This document shows positions 511 through 51,172 of a stretch of 64,000 bases of DNA, piece by piece. The number at the start of each line of letters is the position of its first letter. Position 1 is the first letter of the stretch. The notes beneath the pieces are model-generated. The model saw nothing but the letters and a program-made list of their open reading frames with translations. It was not told the origin of the DNA and made no database searches. The DNA lies in the IMG/VR virus record IMGVR_UViG_3300028886_000053. The stretch is one strand, 5' to 3'. The stretch comes from a virus (Duplodnaviria; Heunggongvirae; Uroviricota; Caudoviricetes). The translations under genes and the position numbers were made by a program.

Positions 511-528
511 ATATACAAGACACATTTG

Positions 529-600
529 TGTACAAATCGGGACTCGAACCCGAAATAAAACGTCCCTAAACATTTCGTTTAACCATTAAACTATTCGCAC
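529..600 (-). pseudogene. tRNA-like gene with aberrant anticodon arm (possible pseudo-tRNA)
   Basis: Good acceptor (GTGCGAA/TTTGTAC), D-arm and T-arm (TCGGGTTCGAGTCCCGA). No canonical 5-bp anticodon stem with a 7-nt loop can be drawn. The best fold is AAACG/CGTTT with a 13-nt loop containing UUUAGGG. Confidence 0.4.
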
Positions 601-972: not shown

Positions 973-1395
973 TTAAATAGTATTAATAACCTCCTCAAAT
1001 AAATAATCTGAAGCAAGTGAAAAACCTGTTTTTTGTCCAGTTTTAGGAGGTATTAATCTTAATGTTTTTTGAGATGTATTACCTTCTACTGGGATTAAAT
1101 AAAAAACTCCATCTTGTTCAGTCATAAAAAAGTCTATTTCATTTTTTGTATATGGTAAAATTTTATTACCATTTGATACAGCATGAGAACTTTTACAATT
1201 AAAAGTAAAAGCTTCTTTATTTTCATTTGTCCATCGAGAAGTTTTTACTTGTATTTTAAAAATTTTACCATCTTTATCTAAAAGAAAATCATATCTTGCA
1301 TCTAAAATAGGTTTAGCTACATTATAACCTTTTTCAAGACATTTTAAAAAACATCTTTGCTAAGTTAAAACTCCTTTTTGTAAATTCTAATTCAT
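973..1395 (-). CDS. PD-(D/E)xK-like / homing-endonuclease-like protein, paralog of 9051..9407. Two in-frame TAG codons lie in the N-terminal extension.
   Basis: Minus-strand translation KGYNVAKPILDARYDFLLDKDGKIFKIQVKT...LIPVEG...EEVINTI aligns along its length with ORF 9051..9407. It is absent from the standard-code ORF track because of the TAGs near the start. Confidence 0.4.
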
Positions 1396-1720: not shown

Positions 1721-1793
1721 TCACCCACCTGGGGGTCGAACCCAGCCCTGCTGATTTAGAGTCAGCTGTCTTAAACCGCTTGACTAGTGGGCG
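1721..1793 (-). tRNA. tRNA-Sup(CUA): amber suppressor tRNA (anticodon CUA, reads UAG). D-arm resembles tRNA-Gln.
   Basis: Reverse complement is CGCCCAC-TA-GTC-AAGCGGTTTAA-GAC-A-GCTGA-CTCTAAA-TCAGC-AGGG-CTGGG-TTCGACC-CCCAG-GTGGGTG-A. The anticodon stem is a perfect 5 bp and the loop is 7 nt with CUA at positions 34-36. The D-loop AAGCGGU matches the bacterial tRNA-Gln D-loop (GCCAAGCGGUAAGGC). Confidence 0.8.
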
Positions 1794-4524: not shown

Positions 4525-4549
4525 CTCCTTGTATCTCTTTTTATTTAAG

Positions 4550-4632
4550 TACCGACGGTGGGACTTGAACCCACACGATTCGAAATCCTGGGATTTTAAG
4601 TCCCATGCGTCTGCCTATTCCGCCACGCCGGC
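4550..4632 (-). tRNA. tRNA-Leu (anticodon UAA)
   Basis: D-arm TGGCGGAATAGGCAGACGC. Anticodon stem TGGGA/TCCCA, loop CTTAAAA. Long variable arm. T-arm GTGGGTTCAAGTCCCAC. Confidence 0.7.
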
Positions 4633-4772: not shown

Positions 4773-5495
4773 TTAAGATATGAAATCATCATAATAAGCC
4801 CATCGTAAAGGTTCTTTAGTCTAAGGGTGTTTTCCTGAGGTTTTTCGTTCACCTTTGCAAACTTTTATAATATTTGCATTTCCCTTTTGACCCGCCCATT
4901 GAGCTGCCTCTTGAATGGTATCAAAAATATGATTTGTATTTAAACATATAACTTTTCTATTTGTATGACCTTTTTTCTTTTTAGAAAAATTTTTAAATTT
5001 ATCGGGATTATCTAGATATTCATCTAAATATGCCCAACTTAAAAATTCATCTCCTATTTTTCCCGCATGTGCTCTAGTACCTTTACAAACAGAAGAAATA
5101 TGTCCTTCACTTCTATTATTTAAATATTTCTCAGCTGCGTCTGAAATAGTATTAAAAATTTCTTTAGTATTTAAACAAATTACTTCTCTATACTTTTCAG
5201 ATATAGTATTTCCACCTTCTCTGATATTATAACCAAATTGAGGATTGGTACTATTGTATTTTTGAATATAATATTTTTCCCAATAATTAGCTTCTTCTAA
5301 TGTTAGATGCTATTTTAATATAATATGTTCAAATGAATCCCATCCATATTTATTTATAGCATTAAAAAAATGGTAACAATTTTTATATCCTTTACCTTTT
5401 TTCCATCTTCTCTAGGGTTTTTGACAAGTTTGTCCTATATAAACTTTGTTATTCTACCTATTCTTATGAATATAAACACAATATTCTTTATACAT
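4773..5495 (-). CDS. GIY-YIG homing endonuclease with NUMOD-like C-terminal repeats. It contains 4 in-frame TAG codons.
   Basis: Minus-strand translation reads MYKEYCVYIHKNR*NNKVYIGQTCQKP*RRWKKGKGYKNCYHFFNAINKYGWDSFEHIILK*HLTLEEANYWEKYYIQKYNSTNPQFGYNIREGG. Two repeats VICLNT...I.EAA...KVCKG.R follow. The GIY...YIG...R...E...N architecture is intact only if TAG is translated. Confidence 0.6.
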
Positions 5496-5643: not shown

Positions 5644-6018
5644 TTAACCCTTCTTTTCCTTTAGAAAAGCGTCATACTCATCTTTAAAACACCACTGGTA
5701 TCCATACGCTTTTCTAGTTCTTGTTCTCTTATTCAGAGCATCACCGATACCGGACTTACCTTCCTTACCGATTGCTTCAAGTGCTTCCTTCTGAGTTGCA
5801 TATTCACCAACAATCTTACCAGTCTCTGGGTCAATCTGAAGCACTCCAGACTTATTAGGACTCTTTCTCTTCTTAGCGGCTGCCGCTTCCTGTTCCTCAA
5901 TCATATCAAGGAAATCTCCGAGAACCTCAAGTGTAGTTCCCTGAATACCAGGGTCAAGTTCTGCGGAATGTTCAAAATAAAAAATCAAACCTTGAATCTT
6001 TGACTTATCCATGTTCAT
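5644..6018 (-). CDS. hypothetical protein with homing-endonuclease-type DNA-binding motif (IENR/NUMOD-like)
   Basis: ORF track, 124 aa. The C-terminus GEYATQKEALEAIGK...GIGDALNKRT..AYGYQWCF is typical of HEG accessory DNA-binding modules. Confidence 0.35.
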   Translation of the reverse strand: MNMDKSKIQGLIFYFEHSAELDPGIQGTTLEVLGDFLDMIEEQEAAAAKKRKSPNKSGVLQIDPETGKIVGEYATQKEALEAIGKEGKSGIGDALNKRTRTRKAYGYQWCFKDEYDAFLKEKKG

Positions 6019-6753
6019 TACTCCTTTTTACTCTTTTGTTTACGTTTTCTTTATCTTATGTATATATTATATCAAAAAATTTTCAAGAAGTCAAAAAAAT
6101 TGAATAACTTAACTATATCTATGAATACAGGTCTTCACCTTACCAAAACTATTCTTCAAATATATTCGACCACTAAGGAAACATACCTGAGGAGAAAGGA
6201 GCGACCTTTCACCTATATGCCCCAGTTCATAAGAACCAATTCTTAGAGGGGATTGCTTACCCTTAACTTTCAGCTACCTTTCAGTAAGTATTGTGAGAAA
6301 GAAATCCTAATCTTGCTCAAAATATAACCAATTTGTCTTTGCAGATTTAGCCTACTCGTACCCTGACCTAACCTTATACACGACTTTCATCGCTTCAACT
6401 GCGAAATCCCTTATTTGGATTTTCCAAGGTTTGACTAGTTTTCCACGCTACTTCCTAACTTGGATTGGTGCTTTTGTTAGAAACCCCATATTGCGGGACC
6501 GATTAGAACAGTGTCTTTATTTGCGAATAATCTCAGTGCTACTAGCCAGAACCCTCCCGTTCGTTTGGGCGTTCTATATATCACTATATAAAACTTTTAA
6601 AGTAAAAACGTATCCGTCGTTACTCAGTTATTCACTTATGGCTATCATACCTCAGCCCTATGGAATTAGGGTTTATCACTGAGTTGATTCATAAATATAA
6701 TTAAGTTATTCAATTTTTAAGGTTCTGAAATATGTTAGAATATCTAACTTTAA

Positions 6754-7241: not shown

Positions 7242-7315
7242 TAGCCCCTGGGGGAGTTGAACCCACCATCTTGACCTTGAAAGGGTCATATCCTGTCCCT
7301 TTAGAAGAAGGAGCC
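7242..7315 (-). tRNA. tRNA-Glu (anticodon UUC)
   Basis: Acceptor GGCTCCT/AGGGGCT with two G-U pairs. Anticodon stem TGACC/GGTCA, loop CTTTCAA. T-loop TTCAACT. Confidence 0.6.
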
Positions 7316-8090: not shown

Positions 8091-8101
8091 AATGATTTTT
8101 A

Positions 8102-8173
8102 TCACTCCTAAGAGATTCGAACTCTTATCTTAACACTGAGAATGTCATATCCTTGCCTTTAGACGAAGGAGCG
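8102..8173 (-). tRNA. tRNA-Glu (anticodon CUC)
   Basis: Acceptor CGCTCCT/AGGAGTG. Anticodon stem TGACA/TGTTA, loop TTCTCAG. T-arm AAGAGTTCGAATCTCTT. Confidence 0.6.
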
Positions 8174-8559
8174 ATAGGGGTTATACCCCTTGTTCTACTC
8201 GAACATAATTTTCTGTTACTTCATAATGAATTCTTCCGAATCTTTCTTCCAAAAACCGTACCTGTGAGAAACCTTTCACAGTTATTAAATGCTTTCTGTT
8301 TCTGTCGTCAACATATGTAACCACGTAAATCACTTCGTTCTTATTCATTTGAAAGTCCTCCACATGATACTGTTTTTTACATTATTATTATAACAAAAAT
8401 TTTTATTTTTTACAAATAAATAATTTATTGAGTGCATGGAAGAAAACGCTTCACGTTTTGGCTATAATTTTAGCTATTTGCTACCGCAAATCTCTCAATA
8501 AATAGTTTTAAGGTCAACCAACCGCACATCTTTTTATCATCGCTTTTGCTAAGATGAAA

Positions 8560-9050: not shown

Positions 9051-9407
9051 TTATAATGTATTTAATACCTCCTTTGCTTTATAATCTTCTAAATAAGACC
9101 AATTACTTCTTATTTCATGTTTTGTTAAATGAAGAGTTTTAGAAGTTGAACATTCTTTTATTGGAATCAAATAAAGTTCATTATCCCAAAATGTTGCAAA
9201 ATAGTCTATTTCTTTAGAGGTATAACCATTACTTTTATTTTGTTGCTTTGATGTTGTTACAGATACACATTTTATTTGAATAGCATCTTTTGTAGAAGGA
9301 TGAGGATGAGCAGTTTTTATTTGTATTTTTAATAATCTCCCTTTAACATCTACAATGCAATCATATCTGCTATCAGCATTTAAAGGTTGAGATACATCAT
9401 ATCCCAT
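9051..9407 (-). CDS. PD-(D/E)xK-like / homing-endonuclease-like protein (paralog of 973..1395)
   Basis: ORF track, 118 aa. The motif YDCIVDVKGRLLKIQIKT is shared with the copy at 973..1395. A T-arm-like hairpin (ACGGGAATCGAACCCGT) lies just 3' at about 9010-9030. Confidence 0.45.
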   Translation of the reverse strand: MGYDVSQPLNADSRYDCIVDVKGRLLKIQIKTAHPHPSTKDAIQIKCVSVTTSKQQNKSNGYTSKEIDYFATFWDNELYLIPIKECSTSKTLHLTKHEIRSNWSYLEDYKAKEVLNTL

Positions 9408-9479
9408 CTATATAAATCGCAACATAACTTGCATTTCTGTTATAAGACCTTTTTGATTTGTAGTATATTCCATTTTATT

Positions 9480-11304: not shown

Positions 11305-11337
11305 AATATTTTTCTCCTTTAGTTAAAAATACAACCA

Positions 11338-11417
11338 CATTAGGAATCGAACCTAAACTACTCCCTGCGGGGCGTGCTACGCGCTTAAATTAACTTCCAT
11401 TACACTATGTGGCTAGT
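11338..11417 (-). tRNA. tRNA-like gene with long variable region (type II-like). Anticodon unresolved.
   Basis: Acceptor AGCCACA/TGTGGTT. T-arm TTAGGTTCGATTCCTAA. The internal GC-rich segment does not give an unambiguous anticodon stem. Confidence 0.3.
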
Positions 11418-11706: not shown

Positions 11707-11817
11707 ATAATTCGGGCAAGGATTTGCACCTTGCATACCAATCTTATTTACAAACATACGTCACTTCATTGGCAAGCCGTCCATGTCTTTAAGCGTCTAC
11801 CTATTCCGCCACCGAAT
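11707..11817 (-). pseudogene. tRNA-Leu-like gene with an insertion of about 27 nt in the anticodon/variable region
   Basis: 5' half ATTCGGTGGCGGAATAGGTAGACGC nearly matches tRNA-Leu(UAA) at 4550..4632. 3' T-arm is CAAGGTGCAAATCCTTG plus acceptor. The middle is about 59 nt against about 32 expected. Confidence 0.3.
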
Positions 11818-13987
11818 CTATATATTAATCAATCAATCAATTCTCTCAACTCCTCTATCCACTCAATAGGAATAGGAAATCTTTGCTCTGAATATCGCTC
11901 CATTGCATCTAATATTTCTCTTATTCGAGTCTTATCATGTATATATTTAGGTTTTAAACCAAGAGGAGGCATAGGAACAGTAGTTGTTGGATAATCTATC
12001 TTCATTTCTATTTTTCCTCTTTTAATTCTTTTAATCCCGTCATTAAACAATGACAATAAATATTATTTTTTTTACTACATCTATCTGGACATCCTGTATC
12101 ATTACAATAAAGGCAACATTTAGAATACCCTTTATTTTCATCACAATCATTCAATGCACAATAAATATATTCGTCCTTCATATCATAAACTTTCGCTTAA
12201 CTGCTTCTTGATTTATAAAACTAGTAAATTTCATACAATCAGAATAATTCTTCCAATGAAAGATTAATAGATTTGTATCACGAAAGTAACGAATTTTATC
12301 AGCATGAAATGTATCTTTCAATAGAAGAACATAATCTGCGGGCGCTATACCTAACATCCTGGCTGGATACCACCATGTATTTGACCCATGCGCCAAATCT
12401 GATGTATCTCCAGTTTCCCACCCATATGGAGTTTGCCATTCTTTATATTTTAATAAATGACTCATAGATTTAATGAAGCTAGCAGAGTAGCGACATTCTC
12501 CTTCTCTTCTTCTGTCATTTCGACAGGCTTCTCAGCAACAGGTTCTGATGCGGTAGGAAATGCGCTTTCTACTGCTCCACTTCCTAGAATATTCTTTGCT
12601 GCGGTTAGAGTAACCTTGATTTCAATCGGGTTCCCGCCTTCATTCATCGGAATCCGCAAAATCTTGTTCTCATCTTCCCAAAATGAATTTGGATAAATTT
12701 CCTTTAACTTATTAAAAATTATATACTTTGACTCTGTACCTTTTGCGCCCATGTTATATAATCCCTCCAATTATCTGCAAAGTAACTTGAATTATAAGTT
12801 GTATATGTTTTGCCTGTTTCTGTTGAGTAGGTTGAATAGGAATGACGATTAATATTTTTCTTTCCTTCCTATCTCATTTTTCTTTTTGCAATATATCGTG
12901 CTTGTCTACGTGTTACAATATACTCTGTTGGTACTCTTGGGTCTTTCATTTTTCATCCTCTTTATTATACTATAAATTTTTATTTTTGTAAATTATACCG
13001 ATTTGATTCTATTTTAAAGTTTTTGCTAATGAAGAAACTTGTAAACAAAAAGAACAAGTAGAAACATTACAACGTTTATTACAATTTAATCGTTTCTATC
13101 CAAAATAAGGTATTAAATAATATGAGTCTGTATCCTCTTTAAAACCTTTAATAATTTCATTTAAAGGTCCCGCCCATCTTTTTCCATTATTATATAAATC
13201 ATATAACACATTTAAAGAATCTTTATCATATTCTGCATTAAAAAATTCTACCACATCTATATATTTATTATATAAATTTATATCTTCAGGTCTAATGAAA
13301 AATGTCCTTAAAGAATTGGTTTCTGGCCAAGAGAACTGACAAATATTACAAAATGTTCTTATTTTTTTATTTTTCTCTTGAGCTTTTTGTTTTATTATGT
13401 CCATAGAAAAACAAAGATCTTCAGTAACATATATATCTGTTACTGAGGTTTCTAATAATCCATTAAATATATCCCATCTATTAGCAAGAGTGAAATAGTA
13501 ATGCGGAAGCTGCTTCTCTGCCAGAAGAGTCTAGATTTCTTTAGCATAAAAAGGCTCTCTTATATCTGGTAATCGCATAACTAAGTCACATGTAGGATAT
13601 TTCTACCTAAATGCCAGGATTAAATCGGGGTCCCGCTCCTAATCAAAATCTCCCCAGCTATCAAAAATCAAATTAATACGTTTCTATTTATATTTTATAA
13701 TAAAATTTTCTAACTATTTTACTTTTGGTTTGTAGTGAATATCAATTTCCACATTTGGCTAATCAAAATAATCAAACTTCCTCGTATAAGGAATTGAAAA
13801 ATTCATCTTCTAACTCCTCCCTGGCAATAAAATCTTCGGGCGGATTCATCATGTACTCATCTCTTAAATCAGATTCCAGTTCAGCCATAAAAATAAAATC
13901 GTCCATATTTATCACCTCATATTTTATTATAATAATTATAACAAAAATTTTTTAAGATTACAAGTCCAAATTCTAAAAATCAATATA

Positions 13988-14659
13988 CTATTCCATATAA
14001 GAACTATAATCAATTAAAACAGGTTTTCCTTCTATTGTATAACCAATATTTCTTGAACCTAAATCATCATCCCACTCTTCATTTAAAAGAAAAGTAAGAA
14101 ATTGTTTTAATTTATATGCTCCATAATAATCTATAAAAGTATTTAACCATTGTGTATCATCAATAGGAAGACAATGTTTAAACCACTTACTAAATACCTT
14201 ACTACTTCTTTTTGAAGTTGTTTTATGCTTACTACGTACAGAACATTTAGGTTGAATATAAATACGAATTCCATTCTTAGTGCTATAAACTATATTAGTT
14301 TTAGCTAAATATTTAGAGAATCCATATTCTTCTGCAAAATCATACCTTTCTTCTTCTGCTTCACAATAGTCCCAAGTAGAAGTTGCGGGCGCACCATAGA
14401 AAAAGGCATAATCTCCCTTCCAGCTATCCCACTCGCTATTAAAAGGAATCTTAAAAACAAAATCTTCCTTTTCCATTATAATAACGAGTTTAGTAGCTCC
14501 ATAAGCGCATCTCCACTCCCCCATCTGATATTCTTCTGAATTTTCATAGAGATAATCTATAAAATCATCTACCGTACTACTATTAAAAAATTCATCAAAA
14601 GAATAACCTTCAATGTATTTTACTAATTTAGCAAAAGATAAACTGTTCTGCATCACCAT
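13988..14659 (-). CDS. hypothetical protein
   Basis: ORF track, 223 aa. Confidence 0.5.
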   Translation of the reverse strand: MVMQNSLSFAKLVKYIEGYSFDEFFNSSTVDDFIDYLYENSEEYQMGEWRCAYGATKLVIIMEKEDFVFKIPFNSEWDSWKGDYAFFYGAPATSTWDYCEAEEERYDFAEEYGFSKYLAKTNIVYSTKNGIRIYIQPKCSVRSKHKTTSKRSSKVFSKWFKHCLPIDDTQWLNTFIDYYGAYKLKQFLTFLLNEEWDDDLGSRNIGYTIEGKPVLIDYSSYME

Positions 14660-14707
14660 TTCTCCTTTTTTATCGTATACATATATTATACAATAAATTT
14701 TTTAAAA

Positions 14708-14734
14708 AATCAAAAAAGAGAGGTTATCCCTCTC
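14708..14734 (-). terminator. rho-independent terminator for gene 14724..15629
   Basis: Hairpin GAGAGG-TTAT-CCTCTC overlaps the TAA stop and is followed on the minus strand by TTTTTTG. Confidence 0.6.
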
Positions 14735-15629
14735 TTTTTATAATACAACGGTTAATAAGCGTCTGCTTAACTCCGTTATAAATTTTATGGTCTTTTACAG
14801 TACCAGTAAGGAGAACAGTTTCTCCAATTTCAATGTCAGGGTCAATACCTTTGCCAGAACAAAACCAAGTCAGAACATTATCTCCAAGTTTAAAGGTATA
14901 AACAAGAGAGACACCATAGTAACTTTCGATTGTGCGGCAACCGGTCAACATGACATGCAGGTCGCGAAGTCTCTGCTTAATCTCTCCAATAAATTCAGAG
15001 TTAGACTTAGGTATAGCCTCTGCTTTAGCGGCGTCCGCAATTTCCTTAGCATTTTCCTTTACAGAGATTTTTCTTGTAATAGGATTCCAGTCGCAAACTT
15101 CATCAAAAGGAACAGGAACAATGTTATAATCCGCAGGTACATCAACTGCATGTGTGCAGTACCAACCAAATTCAGGCTTATATTTACAACCGAGTCCTTT
15201 CAAAGTATCTTTGATAGCATAGGTATTTTCACCAATTACCAACCAAATCTGCGGATGCTCAGTTTCATAGCCTGCCTCTTCGAGAGCAATACGCAGATTA
15301 GACTCAGAATCTTCCTGGAGTTTAGCGACTTCCGCAGCCCTCTGTTCAGCCTTTCTTTCCTTTGCTCTTGCCTGGTTAGCAAGATATTTCTCGTATTCAT
15401 CAGGAGTATATGCTTTTACTCTCTTGCAGATTTTACCAGAACCTCCACATCCGTAGCAAACTCCGCCATCATAAGGAGAAAGGACAGGCTGACCATTATG
15501 AGTACCAAGAGCATAGTAACCAGCGCCGCCACATCTATCACAAACCATTTCGATAAGAGCTTTCTTTTCAACTTCATCAATATTAACAATAGTTGCGTTA
15601 GCGTATGAAGGAGCTACTCTATATTCCAT
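14724..15629 (-). CDS. hypothetical protein with N-terminal Cys4 zinc-ribbon pairs
   Basis: ORF track, 301 aa. CDRCGG...CYGCGGSGKIC. The antisense ORF 14787..15608(+) is rejected. Confidence 0.55.
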   Translation of the reverse strand: MEYRVAPSYANATIVNIDEVEKKALIEMVCDRCGGAGYYALGTHNGQPVLSPYDGGVCYGCGGSGKICKRVKAYTPDEYEKYLANQARAKERKAEQRAAEVAKLQEDSESNLRIALEEAGYETEHPQIWLVIGENTYAIKDTLKGLGCKYKPEFGWYCTHAVDVPADYNIVPVPFDEVCDWNPITRKISVKENAKEIADAAKAEAIPKSNSEFIGEIKQRLRDLHVMLTGCRTIESYYGVSLVYTFKLGDNVLTWFCSGKGIDPDIEIGETVLLTGTVKDHKIYNGVKQTLINRCIIKREG

Positions 15630-30650: not shown

Positions 30651-31679
30651 CAAAAATTCAGTCTTCATAGACAATATCAGCATAGCCATCTTTCATTTCA
30701 AATTCATAATCATGATTGGCAATAGCAAAGCAAGCATTTGTAAAATCTTCATCTTCCTCAAAAATTGTAGATAACTGAGAAAGAATACTTACTAATTCTT
30801 CAGACACGGTTAAAGTGCGATTCATTTCAATTTTCATTTTTTATCACCTCATTTTTTTATTTTATTTAAATAGGATAGGTAGGAGTCGAACCTACATCTT
30901 GCCAAGTGTTTTCCCAATTAAACTACTTTAATGGAATTCGAATCCATATCTCTCGGCTGTGCTTCCCGATGTCACTTACTATCCTTTATTAATTTGCGTC
31001 CATCCTACCAGCCTGGGGGTTCCAGACGCTCCCCGCATGTTGCCTCACATTTATATACCGCAAAGTAGGACTTCGGCTTGCGGTGGTGGGACTTTATCAA
31101 CAGGACTTACTGCGACAACTTGGCGTCTTGGGTCTTTCCCTTGCCTGTATCCCTCATCTTGTATATTTATTATATCAAAGGGGTTGGAGTTTGTCAACCC
31201 CTTTTTTTAAATTCTTGCCTTGATTTCAGCGATTTTTGCCAAAGTCTTGGGACTTGCCTTGGCAAGACGCTCCGCCTGTTTCTTAGGCTTTTCCGCAAGA
31301 TACTTATGTCTTGCCATCTCCTCATCGGGCGGAGTGATATTAATAAAAGCAAAGATTGCATCGCCGTACTGATTAACAGGTGTCCAACATACTCTTCTCA
31401 TAATCTTATCTCCTTTTTTGTGATTTGTTTTCCTCTTGATGATTTTATTATAGCATTTTATTTGATTTTGTCAAGGGGTTTTTTCTGCAATCCGTTAATT
31501 TTTTTTCGTTTAAGGAGCGACCTTAGCGGAGTTGAACCGCCCACCCATCAAGGCTTGCCTTGGGCTACCCTTCTCCCCTTGACAATTATAATTATAAATG
31601 AATATTATTAAAAATACAATATCGGAATATTGCACAAATTATGGGATCTATAATTAAATATTTTTATTCAAATTTCTTA

Positions 31680-40823: not shown

Positions 40824-42044
40824 ATGCAAGAAAAAGAAGATAACGTTATTCCTACTGAAGATGACGCTGTAGATACACAAGAGTTAAAACTTGATTATAC
40901 GATCTAGTCACCAGTGGAACGTAATGAATTAGTAAAAAAGATTGTAGAATCCTTACCTCCCTAGAAGTTAACGAATAGATACTTAGAAATATTAGCGGAT
41001 TATATTATATTTGCAAAAACGAAAGAATAGAGAAAAAAACAAGAGTCTATTAATACTGAAAATAGAATGATAACAATAAATAAACGGTAGACTTCATTTT
41101 AGGGACTAGTAGGAAAATTTGAAAATGGAGAAGATGGAGTATATAACTTATTTACAGAAGATAAGAACATTATCTTTACTCCAAAGATTTCAATTACAGA
41201 AGAAGATTTGGCGGAGATTCCAGCCTTACGAGAATTACGTGCAGCTATTGAAGAGGTTTAGAAACTTTAGAAAACAGCTCGTGGTAAACGTAAATATCTT
41301 CTTAAAAAACAAATTATTTAGATGCGGCAAGATCAGTATGTTATTAAAACTTCTTATAAACAACCGATCTTTTGTCTTAATGCCGTAAAAAATTTCAGTT
41401 CAATGAGTTTTGAAGATAACATTTCTATATCTCCAGATGGAAAAATAAAAGATAAGAGTTTAATATCTTTTATAAATCCTAAACATATCTCTGCTCTATT
41501 GAGAAATTATTCCCGATTAAAAGAAGATTGTTATGGAAAATTTTATACTGATGGATATTATATGATGGAAGTTTTAGATGAATTAGTGGACAAAGCTTTA
41601 AAAGAAAAATATCCTCTTTATTATAGTTTATTGATATATAAAATAGATGGGAAGTCTAATTTAGAAATTCAAAAACTATTAGAAGAAGAACATGGAATAA
41701 GACATTCAGTTGAATATATTTCTTCTCTTTGGCGAAATAAAATTCCAAAATTAATTGCAGAACAGGCCGAAATTGATTTTTTACATTGGTATTATTTAGA
41801 AAAAGAAAAAGGGAAATGGAAAAAATGTTCTCGATGTGGAGAAGTAAAATTAGCGCATAATAAATTTTTTTCTAAAAATAATTCTAGCAAAGATGGATTT
41901 TATTCAATCTGTAAATAGTGCAGAAATAAAAAGAAACGCATAACTCCTAAACCAGAAATTATAAAATATAGAGAAATTGAAAACGGAGTTGTAGTAAAGG
42001 AGGAGATATGGCGAAAAAGAAATGTAGCAAATGTTAGCGAGTAA
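40824..42044 (+). CDS. hypothetical late protein, TAG-recoded (about 9 in-frame TAG), C-terminal CxxC...CxxC zinc ribbon, ends TAA
   Basis: Single frame from ATG 40824 (frame 0) through standard-code fragment 41322..41918 to TAA at 42042-44. The C-terminus is CSRCGEVKLAHNKFFSKNNSSKDGFYSICK-Q-CRNKKKR. Confidence 0.5.
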
Positions 42045-43225
42045 TGGAGGATTTAAAATTTTATTCTAAAAAAAACGGAGATAAATTTGATATGTGCAAG
42101 TAGTGTTTAACTATGCACGTTGATAATTATAATGAAGATACTTTTTTATGGATAATAGAATAGGCAGATCTTCCTTGGGTACCTAGCGAATGGAACGCTA
42201 TTAGATAGAAATAGTATGCCAAAAAAGGCAGAAAAATGAATGGAATGAGTGTTGTCGGAAAATATTTTTCCAAAATGAGGTTAAATCAATGGAAGAAATA
42301 TAATTGGGCAACGAGTGCGGAAGCACAAGAGGAAGCTAATCTTAACAAGTAGTTTAAAGAAGAGCAACAAAAACAATTAGAGTAGAAGTTAAAAGAAGAT
42401 TTTGAAAAGGGTTAGATTACTTAGTCACAATATCGAACTTTAGTTTCTTCTAGTTTTCAGAAGTAGCATTAGTATATGATGCGGCCGGCCGGTTAGGAAG
42501 AGGACCCGGTTGGTAAAGATAATGCCTTTAGATAGGAATATTTCTTATCGGAAGAGGATTTACCCGATCCCGCAGCTGAATTAACAAAAGAAGATAAACA
42601 ATATTTGGCAATGAAATGGGGTCGAAATTATAAACCTAGTCAATGGTTATTGCTTGAAACCAAGTACACCGAAATGATGAATTCATTTGACATTCAGGAT
42701 GCAGATAGTAAAAATACATTAATGTTTATTTGTAAAACATATTTAAAAATGGATGAAGCAATTGATATAGGTGACGTTGAAAGTTATCAAAAACTATCCC
42801 GTGTCTATGATCAGTTACGTAAGTCTATGAAAGTAACGGCCGCGCAAAAGAAAGAAGAGAATAATTAGTTTATAGATTCAGTTGGCTAGTTAGTTGCCTT
42901 TTGTTAGAAACATGGACATGTGATACCTGAATTTTAGATAAAAGCTCCTCATGATATAGTTGATAAAGTCATAAATGATATGAAGGGTTATAATAGATCT
43001 TTGATTTATGAAGACAAAGCCCTTGCTAGACAAATCGAAGATTATATTAAAGAAGCGCGTGCGGCAGCTGCTAGAAAGAAAGACCGAGAATAGGCTAAGA
43101 AGAGAGGCTAGGATTATTATACAATTACAGATAAAGATATTTTAGATTATAAAGACTTCCTTCATAGTGAAAAAATATGGACAGAAAAAGAAATGAAGGG
43201 AGAGGATAACAATGAGTCTTAGTAA
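42008..43225 (+). CDS. late protein with N-terminal zinc ribbon, TAG-recoded (about 19 in-frame TAG). Possible terminase small subunit by position.
   Basis: ATG 42008 (SD AAGGAGGAG), MAKKKCSKC-Q-RVMEDL...DMCK-Q-CLTMHVD. The frame includes fragment 42605..42868 and ends TAG-TAA at 43220-25. It immediately precedes terL. Confidence 0.4.
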
Positions 43226-43560
43226 TATTTTAGATCAATATATTTAGCATGACACTAAAAAACAAGGTTTATCTGAAGAAAGGCTTCTTGATCAATTAGA
43301 CAATCTAAGATATTTAATTAGTTTTTTTAGAAAATATCCTGACCTTTTGGTAGACTATATGAAAGGACCAGATAGTACCTTCCATTTTTATTTTTATCAA
43401 AGAGTTTTCCTTAGAATAGTTATGCGGCACCGATACGTTTATGCAACGTTTCCGCGTGCTTACTCTAAATCATTTTTGTCAATGATGGCATTAATGTTGA
43501 GATGTATATTATATCCTGGGGCGCAATTATTTGTTACTACTGGTGGTAAAAGTATTATTT
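43212..43560 (+). CDS. terL: terminase large subunit, exon 1 (ATPase N-terminus with P-loop-like ATFPRAYSKS)
   Basis: Frame from ATG 43212 includes fragment 43347..43565 (MKGPDSTFHFYFYQRVF...ATFPRAYSKSFLSMMALM...VTTGG). The exon end is approximate. Confidence 0.55.
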
Positions 43561-44597
43561 TATAATTTTATAAAAAAGGGAGGAGCATTATGAGTGCAAA
43601 AAACGTCCTATATAATTTTGAAACGATTGATACAGAGGAAAAAGCTTATTGGTTAGGTTTTTTATATGCAGATGGTTCAGTTGGGTCTAAAGATGACCGA
43701 ATTGAATTAGGTTTAGCAGAAAGAGATTTTCATCATATTGAAAAATTTAGAGATTTTATTGGTATAAATAATAAAATTTCTTATCGAGAAAAAACAAAAT
43801 CATATCGTTACGCTTTTAAAAGTCAAAATTGTAAACAAGATTTAATTAGACAAGGATGTGTTCCTAAAAAATCTTTAGTTTTAAAATATCCTACTTATGA
43901 GCAAGTTCCTAAAGAATTAAGTAGACATTTTATTAGAGGGTATTTTGATGGAGATGGATGGTTTACAAACACAGAATCTTGTTTTCAAGTGGGAATTATT
44001 GGAACAGAAGATTTTATTAGGGGATTCCTTAATAATATAGATGATATAAATAAAGATAATAAAATATTTATTTGTCATCGAGAAGAAGGAGCTAAAAGAT
44101 ATGTTTTTGGAGCTTATCAAGATGTTTTAAATTTTTTAAATTGGATTTATCAAGATGCAACAATTTATCTTGATAGAAAATATGAACATTATTTAGATTT
44201 TATAAATAATGGAAGTAAATATCATAAAAATATAAAATAAAATTTGCCGTATAATATAGAAATATATTATATGATTATCGCGGAATTAAGCGGGAAGGCT
44301 GAAATGCTAATCTGAACCGAAGGCTAGTTAAAAAACTGGTCAGGGGCAACGCGTAGGAGGTGAAAAGATATAATCCTCCCAAGAGGCCGCGACACAAAGA
44401 TTTATAGAATCTTTTGAGATTATCTCACCAATAATCAAACCTAACGTTAAAACGAGGGTGAAAATGTACGCTGAGCTTACATGAATTAAAAAATGTAAGA
44501 ATTAAAGGATAAAAAACCTTTAAGATAACAAAACTGAAATAGCAGGCGGCTAGTATTACCGTGGCAAAGATAGAATAGATATGTAAGTTAATACCAG
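43561..44597 (+). other. group I intron 1 in terL carrying a LAGLIDADG homing endonuclease ORF
   Basis: An intact standard-code ORF is followed by a GC-rich structured core (gggaaggctgaaatgc...gtcaggggcaacgcgtaggagg) in an AT-rich gene. The terL frame resumes at about 44598. Confidence 0.5.
43590..44240 (+). CDS. LAGLIDADG homing endonuclease (two-motif, intron-encoded)
   Basis: ORF track, 216 aa. Motifs LGFLYADGSV and FIRGYFDGDGWF. No TAG. Confidence 0.75.
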   Translation: MSAKNVLYNFETIDTEEKAYWLGFLYADGSVGSKDDRIELGLAERDFHHIEKFRDFIGINNKISYREKTKSYRYAFKSQNCKQDLIRQGCVPKKSLVLKYPTYEQVPKELSRHFIRGYFDGDGWFTNTESCFQVGIIGTEDFIRGFLNNIDDINKDNKIFICHREEGAKRYVFGAYQDVLNFLNWIYQDATIYLDRKYEHYLDFINNGSKYHKNIK

Positions 44598-44880
44598 CTT
44601 TAAGTAATTAGATAAACTGGAATCGTGGTGTATCTAAAAAATCTAAGGATGATGTTAATTATGTATTTAAAAATGGTTCCGTTATAAATATCTTGGCTGC
44701 TAAAGAAAGCAGTAGAGGACAAAGACGTACTGGTGGATTAATGGAAGAATGTGTTTTAATTGACCAGACGGCTTTAAACGAAATTATTATTCCTACTACA
44801 AACGTAGATAGATTACTACCAGATGGAACACGACATAAAGAATAGATTATTAATAAGTCACAGATTTACATTAACTTTTT
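44598..44880 (+). CDS. terL: terminase large subunit, exon 2
   Basis: Frame reads ...VFKNGSVINILAAKESSRGQRRTGGLMEECVLIDQTALNEIIIPTTNVDRLLPDGTRHKE-Q-IINKSQIYINFFEQS with one TAG. Boundaries approximate. Confidence 0.45.
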
Positions 44881-45949
44881 TGAACAAAGCGTTATAAAAA
44901 TATGTGCTTAAAAATTATATATAATAGAACAAAAAAAGGAGGTTCTATTATGTATTATATTTATAAAATAGAAAATTTACAAAATCATAAAAAATATATT
45001 GGATTAACTAATAATATAGCAAGAAGAAGAGCTAGACATTTTACTGATTTAAGATGTAATCGACATGATAATGGTTTTCTTCAAAAAGAATTTAATATTT
45101 ATGGAGAAAATAATTTTTCTTTTGAAAAAATTTTTGAAGGAGATATTACAGAAAAAGAAATAGGAGAGAAAGAAAAAGAGTTTATTAAATTATATGATAG
45201 TTATAGAAATGGGTATAATCAAAATGAAGGTGGAAATTTTGGACCGTCTAATGGTGGAAGTCATTTAACGCAATCGGATATTTATAATATTTGTTCTGCA
45301 TTAGAATTTTGTTCTAGACCAGGAGGCGTGCTATCAGATATGTTTGAAGTTTCTTTAACTACTATTTCTAGAATAAAACAAGAAGTAAACCATAATCAAT
45401 ATATAAATGAATATAAAAATATGTCTTTAGAAGATCGAAAAGCTATATATAAAATATTTTGTGAAAGTTCTAATTTTTATGAAAAGAAAATTAAACAAAC
45501 TATTATAAAGTCTAAAAGACAGCTTACGAAACAGCAGGTTTTTATGATTTTATATAATTTTGAAAATAAAGTTGTTACTTACAAAAAAATGGCAGAAATT
45601 GTTGGAGTAGCAAGCACATATACTTTAGATTGTATAAAAAAAGGATTAACCTATAAAGATTATTCTTATGAATATAATCAACTTAATAACGAAGAAAAAC
45701 AAAAAATAGTGTCGTTATTCAGTAATGAATAATTGTAAGCCATTGAATTGCTGGGAACCCCTTATTAAAAGGGCAATCAGCAGCCAAGCTCTTTATAAGA
45801 GAAGGTTCAACGACTATCCTGAAAGGGAGTACACTCAAGCGAGTGGAAGCGGTGGCCCCCTACTTGAAAAAGAGGGTGAAGATATAGTCTACTCTGCATG
45901 TATATATAAAGATGCAGCAGTTCATAAGAGAACGCATATAGTTTAGCGA
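44881..45949 (+). other. group I intron 2 in terL carrying a GIY-YIG homing endonuclease ORF
   Basis: A HEG ORF is followed by a structured segment (gggaaccccttattaaaagggc...gagtggaagcggtggccccc). The terL frame resumes near 45950. Confidence 0.45.
44950..45732 (+). CDS. GIY-YIG homing endonuclease (intron-encoded)
   Basis: ORF track 44902..45732. The likely start is ATG 44950 after SD AAAGGAGG. Motif YYIYKIENLQNHKKYIGLTNN...R...H...E. No TAG. Confidence 0.7.
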   Translation: MYYIYKIENLQNHKKYIGLTNNIARRRARHFTDLRCNRHDNGFLQKEFNIYGENNFSFEKIFEGDITEKEIGEKEKEFIKLYDSYRNGYNQNEGGNFGPSNGGSHLTQSDIYNICSALEFCSRPGGVLSDMFEVSLTTISRIKQEVNHNQYINEYKNMSLEDRKAIYKIFCESSNFYEKKIKQTIIKSKRQLTKQQVFMILYNFENKVVTYKKMAEIVGVASTYTLDCIKKGLTYKDYSYEYNQLNNEEKQKIVSLFSNE

Positions 45950-47030
45950 ACTATATGGAATACAAGGAACAACGGCGGGTTGGAAGAATTCATTTGCGTA
46001 TGACAAATTAATAGAACTTTTAATTAGAAGTTTAATATAGCCTGATGAAGTTATGATAATGGGAGGAACTTATGAGACTCCTATTATTGAAGGATTGTTA
46101 AATGAAGACTTTGTATAGCAGTTAAAAATGGCTGGCACTTTCAATGAAGATTCATTTGATAGATAGTATAGAAGTATATGGTCGGGCGATGCAGAAAATG
46201 CGTTCTTCTCTGCCTAGAAATTTGACAAGTATAGAACACTTAGACAACCGTAGTACGAATATAGCGGCCGCACCAGTAAAAATGCTTACTATGTCATTGG
46301 AGTTGATGTAGGTCGTATTGGATGTACAACCTAGGCCTGTATTTTTAAGGTGACGCCGCAACCTCAAGGAGTTGCATTGAAGTCTCTTGTAAATATATAT
46401 ACTTATGAGGCATAGCATTTTGAATAGCAAGCTATAAATATTAAGCAACTGTTTTATAGATATAAAGCTAGATCAATTGCATTAGATACTAATGGTCTTG
46501 GAATAGGTCTTTTAGACTTTATGGTAAAGGCCCAGGAGACACCAGATGGATAGTATCTTCCACCTTTTGGTATTTAGAATGATGATTAGGGTATTTATAA
46601 GAAATATTTTAAAGGTGTAACAGATGTTCAAAAAGATGCTATTTTCCAAATTAAAGCTAATGCTCCTATTAATACATAGGCATATTCATTTGCTCAGACT
46701 CAAATGTCAAGTGGGAAGATTAAATTTTTAATTGATGAAGCAGAAGCAAAAGCTAAGTTAATGGAAACTAAACAAGGTCAAAACATGACGCCTGATAAGA
46801 GAAATGAGTATTTGAAGCCTTTTGTTCTTACTACTATTTTAAGAGAACAAACATTGAATCTCGTTGAAGATAACGAAGGTGTTAATATTATTTTAAAACA
46901 AGAGAATAGAGGTATTAAAAAGGATAAATTCTCTTCTTTTGTTTATGGATTATATTATATTAAACAATAGGAAGATAGAAGAAAAAAGAGAAAAGGAAGA
47001 GATATTAGTAAACTTCTCTTATTTTCTTGA
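45950..47030 (+). CDS. terL: terminase large subunit, exon 3 (RNase H-like nuclease domain), about 14 in-frame TAG
   Basis: Frame contains YYVIGVDVGRIG, DTNGLGIGLLD and KFLIDEAEAKAKLMETK, and includes fragment 46704..46970. If the TAG at 46968 is read as sense, the protein ends at TGA 47028-30. Confidence 0.55.
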
Positions 47031-49145: not shown

Positions 49146-50534
49146 ATGAGTTTAGCGCATAAAAGTGTAGCGACGATAAAAAGTCCAGAGTTCATTAATC
49201 TTACTCCTCTTGATATTAATCCCTTAATGTCCGCATGTGAAATTAAAGTTTTTTATATTGGACAAAACCGTAATAAGAGTTTTATTTCTAAATAGGTTGC
49301 TACTTAGATGGCAAAGACTCTTAGAGGTGCTCCTATTGTTGGGTATTATAAACCAGATAAAGAGGATTTTACAGATCATGGTGAAGAAATAACGATTGAT
49401 GGGGATGGTGTTCATTTTAAAAATAACACTAAGCCATATGGATTTGTAGCTCCAGATGCGAAAGTCTGGTTTAAAGATTTTGAAGAGGAAGATGATTTTG
49501 GAAATTCCATAATTAGAACTTATCTAATGACCACTGGATATTTGTGGGAAGGTCAATTTGAAGAAGCTAAAAAAGTTTTTGAAGATGATGGAAAACCTCA
49601 TTCAATGGAATTAGATGAAAAAAGTTTAAAAGGACATTGGGCAACAAACCCAAATAATAATATGGAATTTTTTATAATTAATGACGCAATATTTGAGAAA
49701 CTCTGTATTTTAGGAGATGAGGTTGAACCTTGTTTCTAGGGTAGTGGTGTAACTGCTCCAGAGGTTAGTACAACCTTTTCTCTTGATGATAATTTTAAGC
49801 ATACTCTGTTCACTATGATGGAAGAATTAAAGTATGCTTTAGAAGGAGGCAATACTATGGCAAAAGTAGCTGAAGCTTCAGTAAATGAGACTGTTACTAC
49901 TATAGAACCTGAAGTAACAACAGAATTTACTGAGAATCAAGTTAATGAGAATGAGTCTTCATCTAGTGAGCAAGCGCCTGCTTCAGAATTTAAAAAGGAT
50001 GATGAAGAGGACAAAAAAGAAAAAGAAAATCCTTCTGAAAATGAGGATGATAAGAAGGATGAAGACAATGGCGGAGGTGCTTCTGATTCAGATGATGACT
50101 CTGCTAATGAAGAAAAGAAAGATGAAGAAGATAAGAAGAAGAAATTCACTGTCCTTGAACAGGAATATAATGAGTTGCAAACTAGTTATACTTCTTTGAA
50201 GGAAGAAGTTGAAGAACTAAGAACTTTCAAGAAAAAAATAGAGGACAAAGAGAAGGACGACCTTATTAAAGATTTCTATATGCTTTCTGATGAAGATAAG
50301 AAAGATGTTATTGAACATAAGAGTGAATATTCATTAGAAGATATTAAATCTAAATTAGCAGTGATTTGCTTTGAAAAGAAGGTCAATTTTAATTTAGACA
50401 CTTCTTCTGAAAATGAAGAATCAACAGTAGAAGAGGATGAAAATCCTGTTACTACTTTTGATATTAAGGCAACTGAAGATTCAACAGTTCCTGAATGGGT
50501 TAAGGCGGTTGAATCTGCAATGAATAGATATTAA
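49146..50534 (+). CDS. probable prohead protease/scaffolding protein (single frame, 3 in-frame TAG). The acidic C-terminal half is scaffold-like.
   Basis: Strong SD AAGGGGG before ATG 49146. The frame joins fragments 49308..49739 and 49815..50534. The C-terminal 240 aa is D/E/K-rich and coiled-coil. It could alternatively be two genes. Confidence 0.4.
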
Positions 50535-50551: not shown

Positions 50552-51172
50552 ATGGCAAAAGAAAGAATCGGCTATGGACAAGTAGAACGCCAACACATGG
50601 CTGCTCCACATAACGGTCAAATCTATGCTCAACTTCCTGCTCTTAATGCTAACGGTACTCCAATCGCTCAGCTTGAGAATGGACAGTTTTTAAAATATGA
50701 TTATGCAAATGGTAAGGCTGGAGTTGGAACATCTGGTGATGGCAAAGAATGGTTCCTTGTTTATAATGAAGAAAAGTTATATGACGAGAGATACCAAAAT
50801 CATAAAGATTTTGCTATGAAGGCAGCAGATATGTCTGATGGTACTATCTATCCTAGACTTTTAAGAACCTTTGTTGGTGATATTTTCACAACAAATACTT
50901 TTAAGGGTCCTAAGGGTACTGTAACAGATAAAGAAGGTAAGATTGATGATATTCCGGATCTTGCTATTGGTGATTATGTAGTAATTGGTGATGATGGTTG
51001 GTTAGTAAAAGGTACGGGTACAGGAACTGATGGAGTAAATCCTCCAACTGGTACTGGTATTGTTTTCCAGGTTATTCCTCATTTTACACAAATGGGTATG
51101 GCGGCTGCTGATAGACCAGCTTATACATTACCTGATGGACAATGGGCTGTGAAGCTTCAAAGAATACGCTGA
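50552..51172 (+). CDS. head decoration / minor capsid protein (no TAG)
   Basis: ORF track, 206 aa. SD AGGAGG. Immediately upstream of the major capsid protein. Confidence 0.4.
   Translation: MAKERIGYGQVERQHMAAPHNGQIYAQLPALNANGTPIAQLENGQFLKYDYANGKAGVGTSGDGKEWFLVYNEEKLYDERYQNHKDFAMKAADMSDGTIYPRLLRTFVGDIFTTNTFKGPKGTVTDKEGKIDDIPDLAIGDYVVIGDDGWLVKGTGTGTDGVNPPTGTGIVFQVIPHFTQMGMAAADRPAYTLPDGQWAVKLQRIR

Follow-up and report, generated by a model that had tools for sequence, protein, structure and literature searches.

Comparative evidence for TAG as a glutamate codon in a tailed phage and its unequal use by two sets of homing endonuclease genes

The virus record IMGVR_UViG_3300028886_000053 (Caudoviricetes) was analyzed over a stretch of 64,000 nucleotides (nt), referred to here as the window, which represents 64 kb of a genome of ~145 kb. 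Within an array of tRNA genes it carries a free-standing GIY-YIG homing endonuclease gene of 240 codons (4773..5495, minus strand) that contains four in-frame TAG codons, whereas the endonuclease genes located in the introns of terL contain none. The locus therefore raises the question whether TAG is translated in the array genes, which amino acid it specifies and why the two sets of endonucleases differ. Taken together, the data make it probable that the phage reads TAG as glutamate by means of its own suppressor tRNA of the tRNA-Glu type, that the array endonucleases are functional residents and that the open reading frames (ORFs) of the introns are code-neutral and mobile.

The window has a GC content of 34% and belongs to a tailed phage of the EF1/phAss-1-like group, a relative of Enterococcus phage EF1 and of phAss-1. 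PHROG matches include a sigma-factor-like protein, a portal and virion proteins, and the capsid-like protein shares 48% identity with phAss-1 and 37% with EF1. For TerL, 7,914 database homologs were found, which shows that the clade is large; the best 120 have identities of 76-95%, and their contigs reach 149 kb. The host is probably a member of the Clostridia class of the Bacillota, to judge from tRNA similarity only.

The whole phage is TAG-recoded, with early genes free of TAG and most late genes containing it. Once TAG is taken as sense, long ORFs fill the plus strand from 40.8 kb onwards, for example a frame of 1,546 codons with 20 TAGs that is still open where the window ends. The small genes of the minus strand between 22.6 and 40.3 kb contain essentially zero TAG. 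In the late genes overall, TAG accounts for 113 of 637 codons of the Glu family (GAA, GAG and TAG; ~18%) and in the early genes for none. In-frame TAG in essential late genes and a phage-encoded suppressor tRNA(CUA), both of which characterize phages assigned to code 15, were thus found.

Endonuclease genes in the tRNA array and in the terL introns

The tRNA array comprises 24 tRNA/tmRNA (transfer-messenger RNA) genes detected by ARAGORN on the minus strand between 360 and 11,490. The TAGs of its GIY-YIG gene stand at codons 14, 28, 62 and 225 (window positions 5454-5456, 5412-5414, 5310-5312 and 4821-4823). TAG is the sole in-frame stop, TAA and TGA being absent. The chance of 240 random codons without TAA or TGA in the window sequence was 3.6e-6, and the chance of four out of four stops all being TAG was 0.002. 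With X placed at the TAG positions, the product matched the Pfam family GIY-YIG (PF01541) above the cut-off (E 8.5e-10), and residues 7-84 matched I-TevI (PDB 1mk0; phmmer, E 1.4e-4). A total of 536 homologs was recovered, and NUMOD domains occur in homologs.

In an alignment of 120 homologs the motifs VYIH, VYIGQT, RRW, YWEKYYI and GYNI are kept. The catalytic residues Tyr (GIY), Tyr (YIG), Arg, Glu and Asn are all present and none of them is encoded by TAG; the putative catalytic Glu was assigned from the pattern E-x-x-x-I in our own reading of the alignment. A preliminary description of this DNA had stated that all four TAGs must be read through to preserve this architecture. In the phmmer alignment to I-TevI, codon 14 is opposite Leu12, codon 28 opposite Glu25 and codon 62 opposite Glu67. 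The earlier remark that two of the three N-terminal TAGs face Glu in I-TevI is therefore literally true, and it is a clue to the meaning of TAG and not a curiosity.

The ortholog in the related locus L001 keeps all four TAGs at an identity of 95% (database protein; 93% by tblastn with X at the TAGs), and the ratio of nonsynonymous to synonymous substitution rates (dN/dS) was 0.071. In locus L002, with ~62% identity, codon 14 is again TAG and codons 28, 62 and 225 specify Glu, Lys and Glu, respectively. In the window, L001 and L002 the gene lies directly upstream of tRNA-Leu(TAA) (4549..4632, minus strand; ARAGORN), a neighbour conserved by synteny, between this tRNA gene and the gene g5644. 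It is absent from the same junction in L098 and L101, where the flanking genes are 84-93% identical, and such presence/absence polymorphism at a fixed site is a sign of mobility. Between L002 and the window the adjacent gene shows 55% identity, compared with ~62% for the GIY-YIG gene itself. From this comparison, the array GIY-YIG gene is read as mobile too, yet as co-diverged with its neighbours and as a long-standing occupant of its site.

Two further endonuclease genes are present in the array, both on the minus strand. The first (973..1395) encodes an I-Ssp6803I-like PDDEXK_5 endonuclease of 140 amino acids with TAG at codons 3 and 12, and the second (9051..9473) is its paralog with one TAG at codon 22. 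The preliminary description was right in recording a PD-(D/E)xK gene with two TAGs near its start at 973..1395, but this gene is not a paralog of the GIY-YIG gene, and the true paralog, 9051..9473, was missing from its list. The Pfam family PDDEXK_5 (PF11645) was matched with E-values of 3e-22 (973..1395) and 8e-22 (9051..9473), and the PDB entry 2OST (I-Ssp6803I) with 3.7e-9 by 973..1395. The core residues D36 and Q49-x-K51 are invariant across 64 homologs. In locus L094 the ortholog of 973..1395 keeps both TAGs, with a dN/dS of 0.158.

The low dN/dS values (0.07 and 0.16), TAG as the only in-frame stop and the TAGs kept in relatives indicate that these genes are not pseudogenes. On this comparative basis the three array endonuclease genes (one GIY-YIG and two PD-(D/E)xK) are judged to be intact and functional with TAG as a sense codon. 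The use of TAG as sense, as first suggested for the array endonucleases, is borne out by the dN/dS values and by the conserved TAGs, and the Pfam search proposed at that time recovered both domains from the frames with X at the TAGs.

The terL gene consists of three exons on the plus strand, 43212..43550 (1 TAG; located by blastn/tblastn to the intron-less terL of the loci L018 and L017), 44540..44871 (4 TAGs) and 45968..47030 (13 TAGs). The spliced product of 577 residues is colinear with the intron-less TerL of L018, and the colinearity with the intron-less genes of relatives shows that two insertions split terL. The first intervening sequence (43551..44539, boundaries ±3 nt, plus strand) is a precise insertion of 986 nt. 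It contains a LAGLIDADG ORF (43590..44240) with its own Shine-Dalgarno sequence and ATG; a group I core was not found in it and no Rfam intron family matched even at E 10. The second (44872..45967, plus strand) is a group I intron, the catalytic core of which (45675..45910) matched Rfam Intron_gpI (RF00028) with 90.2 bits (E 1e-22; gathering score 50), and it carries a GIY-YIG ORF (44950..45732; Pfam E 1.8e-9). Both ORFs contain zero TAG, as had been noted before.

Among eight related terL genes, seven are without either insertion, one (L013) contains the first and none contains intron 2. The LAGLIDADG ORF of L013 shares 90% amino acid identity with the window copy. The nearest cultured homolog of the intron 2 GIY-YIG protein (48.7%) is a 'homing endonuclease' of the standard-code Enterococcus phage VRE9. 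In EF1 (L005) terL (11783..14891) seems to be interrupted by an annotated 'HNH homing endonuclease # Phage intron'. It seems that introns have repeatedly targeted terL in this phage family and that the endonuclease families differ by member.

The share of TAG among Glu-family codons was 18 of 46 (39%) in the terL exons and 0 of 38 in the intron ORFs (Fisher p 4.4e-6). For the three array endonuclease genes it was 7 of 39, which is the same share as in the late genes. In the codon usage comparison that had been proposed for the two sets, TAG thus separates them (7/39 vs. 0/38), whereas the GC content at third codon positions is very low in both (0.06-0.14). Strong Shine-Dalgarno sites were found for the intron ORFs only and not for the array endonuclease genes.

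The contrast between the two sets is real and fits different residence times. The array endonuclease genes would be established occupants with a codon usage equilibrated to the phage code, although long residence is seen directly for the GIY-YIG gene only, and the intron ORFs would be code-neutral passengers of sporadic introns. The suggestion of a different evolutionary age is supported by the sporadic occurrence of the introns in relatives and by the synteny of the array GIY-YIG gene down to 62% identity. In the simplest reading the intron ORFs are free of TAG either by recency or by selection for readability in the standard code, and these two are not separable. The other earlier suggestion, expression timing, is not required as an explanation, since terL is late and TAG-rich and the suppressor would thus be available to the intron ORFs.

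A number of observations weigh against age as the cause. The TAG-free state is shared by the whole early block and by three ordinary late genes of the plus strand, namely those of the presumed major capsid protein (51189..52307; TAG in 0 of 28 Glu-family codons), of a tail-tube-like virion protein (56562..57578) and of a 206-amino-acid protein (50552..51172). In the neighbours of these three genes TAG makes up 10-40% of the Glu-family codons, and the scaffold-like gene 49146..50534 contains 3 TAGs in 69 such codons, which points to avoidance of TAG in the genes of highest expression. In addition, the LAGLIDADG copy of L013 has diverged by 10% and yet contains no TAG. The absence of TAG could therefore be due to selection or to expression level and not to recency.

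In such a case the intron ORFs would be expressed before or independently of the suppressor, or would avoid inefficient suppression. Their strong Shine-Dalgarno sites fit this explanation, as do the TAG-free high-output late genes and the opposite case described by Borges et al., in which recoding of an intron endonuclease was proposed to delay its production. We regard it as possible but not as the likely one. The introns lie in a late gene with 39% TAG in its exons, so that the suppressor is present when they are transcribed, and their patchy distribution as well as the homolog in a standard-code phage fit mobility. Furthermore, only ~1 new TAG is expected over 10% divergence, and finding none in the L013 copy is weak evidence for selection.

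Amino acid specified by TAG

For the assignment of TAG, all window proteins were aligned with TAG masked as X to those of the standard-code phages EF1, Mammaliicoccus phi6255 and C. difficile LIBA6276. The residues opposite TAG were most often E (29), followed by K (13), D (12), Q (9) and S (9). Empirical log-likelihoods from the same alignments were -277.4 for TAG=E, -294.7 for D and -295.2 for Q. In conserved contexts E prevailed over Q by 10 to 1.

Next, 18 related loci were drawn from IMG/VR with the TAG-free capsid protein as anchor, and the codon-by-codon comparison covered 20 related loci. In high-scoring segment pairs of at least 85% identity, the codons opposite a window TAG were TAG (351), GAA (28), GAG (16), CAA (2) and CAG (2), and between 70 and 85% identity TAG (72), GAA (78), GAG (14), CAA (12) and CAG (5). 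This corresponds to 44 Glu versus 4 Gln codons and to 92 versus 17, respectively. The log-likelihood at the higher identity was -57 for E with Asp as next best (-243), and at 70-85% it was -202 for E and -465 for Q. Glu was favoured in every identity bin, by more than 100 log units in the three bins above 50% and by 28 in the lowest. A separate codon comparison of the L028-type loci with one another was uninformative, as they are nearly identical. The shares of GAG and CAG in early versus late genes were not used, as they are readable either way and the CAG share also falls in the late genes.

Since the codon cells are not independent, unique sites were also counted. At 67 of the 100 covered TAG sites a Glu codon is found in some relative, and at 16 a Gln codon. 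The replacement spectrum of the TAG sites (D 0.20, Q 0.16, K 0.08) resembles that of Glu sites (D 0.23, Q 0.13, K 0.17) and not that of Gln sites (E 0.11, D 0.04), i.e., TAG sites behave like Glu sites. Conversely, TAG occurs in some relative at 21.9% of the window Glu sites, 8.2% of the Gln sites and 4.6% of the Asp sites. When five relatives were tested likewise, four scored Glu and one (L025) gave a near tie of Q and E.

Three independent checks agree with TAG = Glu. The first is provided by the PDDEXK_5 proteins, in the alignment of which the column of codon 12 of 973..1395 contains Glu in 57 of 58 sequences. The lone 'Q' belongs to the L094 ortholog, the DNA of which has TAG there. The TAG at codon 22 of 9051..9473 also falls on a near-invariant column (Glu in 59 of 61), and the conserved Glu of the subfamily (Glu12 in 973..1395 and Glu21 in 9051..9473) is present in both genes only if TAG encodes Glu. 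The 2OST chain as deposited has Gln at position 12, where this subfamily has the invariant Glu.

The second check used the 120 database TerL proteins, which were evidently translated with code 15. Their 18 TAG columns contain almost only 'Q' (1,022), E (936) and D (155). The window Glu columns show 'Q' in 18%, and the window Gln columns show E in 3.8%. This asymmetry is expected if the database 'Q' in these columns is a mistranslated Glu codon. As the third check, phAss-1, a TAG-recoded gut phage annotated with code 15 and TAG=Gln (PMC10607447), served as control. In the same test Q was counted 8 times and E 3 times, and Gln fitted best; this result, from 18 cells only, agrees with the published assignment.

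Taken together, TAG is assigned to glutamate and not to glutamine in the window phage, statistically and by comparison. The alignment of TAG with Gln in homologs, as known for code 15, was not observed, Glu being the best fit in every test. The translation with TAG=Q that had been proposed for the array genes is contradicted by the likelihoods, the unique sites and the PDDEXK_5 and TerL columns. Public proteins of this clade (P0001, P0121 and P0185-P0304) are translated with TAG=Gln and would thus show Gln at positions that the comparison reads as Glu. For P0001, P0006 and P0121 the look-up reported that the locus DNA does not translate to the protein, and TAG stands where the proteins have Q.

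A suppressor tRNA with the anticodon CUA was identified at 1721..1793 (minus strand; ARAGORN, Rfam 55 bits). It is characterized by C1-G72, G2.U71 and A73, the D-arm GUCAAGCGGUUUAAGAC including U11-A24, the anticodon loop CUCUAAA and a variable loop of 4 nt. Its minimum free energy fold alone gives no cloverleaf (z -1.2), and its status as a tRNA is based on ARAGORN, Rfam and covariation. The suppressor was found in nine metagenome contigs at the same place of the array, Val(tac)-Sup-Ser(gct)-Ser(tga). Six of the nine copies are identical and three carry compensatory changes at the acceptor pairs 6-67 and 7-66, which indicates a tRNA under selection. A blastn search with the suppressor against the phage collection gave no match, and a search of IMG/VR for the exact window-type T-arm found nothing, whereas the metagenome scan did find it.

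A second suppressor type has the same D-arm and whole anticodon arm, combined with the acceptor GGCCCCA/UGGGGUC, and is located in other phage contigs directly after tRNA-Glu(TTC) and tRNA-Glu(CTC). Its first 29 nt agree at 28 positions with a tRNA-Glu(CTC) of Saccharofermentans. When 185,579 species genomes were scanned with the pattern GGCC-N5-GTCAAGCGGTTTAAGAC, 63 tRNAs were returned, all of them tRNA-Glu (55 TTC and 8 CTC) and nearly all from Bacillota. The tRNA-Gln genes in the same bacterial loci have a GCCAAGCGGUAAGGC D-arm and a variable loop of 5 nt. None of the Gln features (U1-A72, G73, the 5-nt variable loop and the GCCAAGCGGUAAGGC-type D-arm) is present in the window suppressor, while the suppressor of phAss-1 has U1-A72, G73 and a 5-nt variable loop. 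An ordinary tRNA-Gln(UUG) is also encoded by relatives of the window phage. The body of the suppressor thus appears to be of the Bacillota tRNA-Glu type.

U11-A24 and a missing nucleotide 47 are identity elements of glutamyl-tRNA synthetase (GluRS) in E. coli. Many Bacillota have no glutaminyl-tRNA synthetase (GlnRS) and produce Gln-tRNA by amidation of Glu-tRNA-Gln; the pair U1-A72 is required by the amidotransferase of this route. If a tRNA-Glu body carried a CUA anticodon, the host GluRS would be expected to charge it with Glu and the Glu-to-Gln amidotransferase to ignore it.

The following points speak against this assignment. The evidence for Glu is statistical and all comparative, and the counts include related sequences that are not independent events. 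The 16 of 100 TAG sites that exchange with Gln codons are a further point, although Glu sites do so similarly (13%). The window suppressor itself does not have the GGCC acceptor start of the scan pattern, and of its features only the D-arm and the 4-nt variable loop, together with its homology to the sister type, point to Glu. In whole-sequence identity to bacterial isotypes it ties at 0.73 between Glu, Lys and Arg, and a comparison with other phage tRNAs was likewise uninformative, while the sister type favours Glu (0.82). Moreover, GluRS normally reads C36, and its tolerance of A36 in the suppressor is assumed here.

Ambiguous decoding of TAG as a mixture of Glu and Gln, by partial transamidation of the Glu-charged suppressor or by two suppressors in the genome, is considered unlikely. 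The analysis covers 64 kb of the ~145 kb, phAss-1 has three suppressors (PMC10607447) and some exchange of TAG with Gln was observed. However, a single suppressor type occupies this array position in all relatives examined, TAG stands at invariant Glu positions and the rate of TAG-to-Gln exchange equals the ordinary Glu-to-Gln rate.

Slightly less probable still is the standard code 15, with TAG as glutamine as in crAss-like phages, Lak and phAss-1 and the matches to Glu as conservative E-to-Q drift. In its favour, published relatives were annotated with TAG=Gln (PMC10607447), Borges et al. observed only TAG to Gln, a Gln codon occurs in some relative at the 16 sites mentioned above and L025 scores Q and E nearly equal. 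The likelihoods prefer E in all identity bins, however, with the -202 versus -465 at 70-85% as an example. Replacement by Asp at TAG sites (20%) is similar to that at Glu sites (23%) and differs from that at Gln sites (4%), and TAG falls on an invariant Glu of PDDEXK_5. In addition, the suppressor is without U1-A72 and G73 and has a tRNA-Glu D-arm and a 4-nt variable loop, and relatives encode a separate tRNA-Gln(UUG).

That the TAG-containing array ORFs are decaying pseudogenes with TAGs as real stops is very improbable: homing endonuclease genes often decay, the array ORFs have no clear Shine-Dalgarno sequence and the GIY-YIG gene is missing from some relatives, but the dN/dS values apply to the full ORFs, TAA, TGA and frameshifts are absent (P 3.6e-6), the same TAGs are kept in orthologs despite many synonymous differences, the GIY, YIG, R, E, N and D...QxK motifs are intact and TAG is sense across essential late genes. 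The degraded frames without catalytic residues that the preliminary description had envisaged as a refutation are excluded by the same data.

Further features of the late region and of the tRNA array

At the head of the late block a sigma-factor-like gene (40824..42044, plus strand; PHROG 5767, E 2e-49) contains nine in-frame TAGs, so that the suppressor tRNA should be needed to produce it. It may represent a translational gate on late transcription, and the nine TAGs fit the published proposal of a late programme gated by suppression (Borges et al.). Beside the tRNA array, a 286-amino-acid ORF (12946..13806, minus strand) has nine TAGs, 35% of its Glu-family codons and the maximum of the minus strand. 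It had no match in Pfam or PHROG.

The array includes a tRNA-Glu(CTC) (8101..8174, minus strand; ARAGORN) that reads GAG, one step from TAG. A full-length ROOL RNA (6109..6707, minus strand; Rfam RF03087, 296.8 bits, model positions 1-574) lies between a 124-amino-acid gene (5644..6018) and tRNA-Trp. Of the relatives examined, L001 alone has it (89.7% identity); in L098 and L101 this interval is without it, which makes it as polymorphic as the neighbouring endonuclease gene. A phage tmRNA (2279..2561, minus strand) was detected with Rfam RF00023 (69.9 bits) and also with ARAGORN, which predicts the atypical tag GGTENLYCD*, whereas the tmRNA of L002 has the ordinary ANDYALAA*.

The tRNA at 528..600 (minus strand) has an anticodon loop of 8 nt, UUUAGGGA, with the ARAGORN anticodon 'tagg' (Rfam tRNA, 48 bits). 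It is conserved in L099 and L101, and its counterpart in L094 (1755..1828) is a normal tRNA-Pro(CGG) with the loop UUCGGGA. A role of the 8-nt-loop tRNA as a quadruplet or frameshift-type decoder is possible, as are other readings of its anticodon. Two tRNAs were detected by Rfam and not listed by ARAGORN (7242..7315 and 30871..30932, both minus strand). Several ARAGORN tRNAs are absent from Rfam at the gathering threshold, including an 85-nt 'tRNA-Ala(agc)' (11331..11415, minus strand).

Related systems and implications

Precedents exist for code-15 recoding, for suppressor tRNAs located in arrays and for homing endonucleases, both in tRNA clusters and within introns of terL. The free-standing GIY-YIG homing endonuclease SegB is located in the tRNA gene cluster of T4. 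The window gene is similar in its position between phage tRNA genes and in its presence or absence among relatives, but it requires a recoded stop, its similarity is confined to the catalytic domain and it is known here by sequence. With I-TevI (PDB 1mk0/1ln0) it shares the GIY-YIG catalytic domain and a modular build with C-terminal DNA-binding repeats; unlike I-TevI it is free-standing, and two helix-turn-helix-like repeats replace the zinc finger and helix-turn-helix. I-Ssp6803I lies in an intron of tRNA-fMet. The PD-(D/E)xK genes of the window share with it (PDB 2OST) the Pfam family PF11645 (E 3e-22), the D...QxK core and the association with tRNA genes, but are free-standing between tRNA genes and not intronic.

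In the proposed model, the phage would reassign TAG to Glu through its suppressor tRNA(CUA), and the array endonuclease genes would have drifted to the codon usage of the phage (18% TAG), which makes them translatable only once the suppressor is present. Their products most likely act like SegB and would, in co-infecting relatives, cleave alleles of the tRNA region that lack the endonuclease, after which the endonuclease genes would be copied in along with flanking tRNA genes. The terL intron ORFs, without TAG and with strong Shine-Dalgarno sites, would be readable in either code and likely originate from recent arrival from, or ongoing exchange with, standard-code relatives.

The phage shares with the code-15 phages (crAss-like, Lak and phAss-1; Borges et al., 2021/2022; Peters et al., 2022; Babkin et al., 2023) the concentration of in-frame TAG in genes for late and structural functions, an early gene set that remains readable in the standard code and a tRNA(CUA) in a large tRNA array, and phAss-1 belongs to the same broad family. 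It differs in the amino acid, here Glu, and in the suppressor, which is built on a tRNA-Glu body (C1-G72 or G1-C72, U11-A24 and a 4-nt variable loop). In the Agate phages, stop recoding is likewise tied to the expression of homing endonucleases (Borges et al.). There the intron endonuclease is enriched in recoded TGA and proposed to be delayed, whereas in the window the intron ORFs avoid TAG and the free-standing genes use it.

Glutamate is specified by TAA and TAG in the nuclear code of peritrich ciliates (NCBI table 30). That code has TAG as glutamate in common with the window phage, but is eukaryotic and genome-wide and includes TAA, compared with a change of TAG only that a virus would impose on a standard-code bacterial host by means of a suppressor tRNA. 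For phages with a code that differs from that of the host, only TAG to Gln and TGA to Trp were described, which was read as only GlnRS and TrpRS being hijackable (Borges et al.). No report of TAG to Glu in a phage was found in searches of full-text literature, which largely do not cover subscription journals.

It is somewhat more probable than the contrary that a widespread clade of ~145-kb Bacillota phages with TAG as Glu, decoded by a host-type tRNA-Glu suppressor, and the phAss-1 genus with TAG as Gln represent two independent amber reassignments within one family. If the assignment is true, it would be the first reported amber reassignment other than to Gln for a phage that overrides a standard-code host. 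Phages would then have a third synthetase route, presumably through GluRS where the host produces Gln-tRNA indirectly, and the sister lineages would form a natural Glu/Gln pair for studying the evolution of code changes. Gene callers that apply code 15 only would mistranslate the clade and turn a share of its Glu residues into Gln (~18% of the Glu-family codons in the late genes of the window), even where Glu is catalytic or invariant for other reasons. Homing endonucleases that reside in a genome can be distinguished from invading ones by their use of the recoded codon. Finally, as the gene 973..1395 lies ~330 nt from the suppressor tRNA on which its own translation would depend, homing could carry a code-changing tRNA between co-infecting phages.

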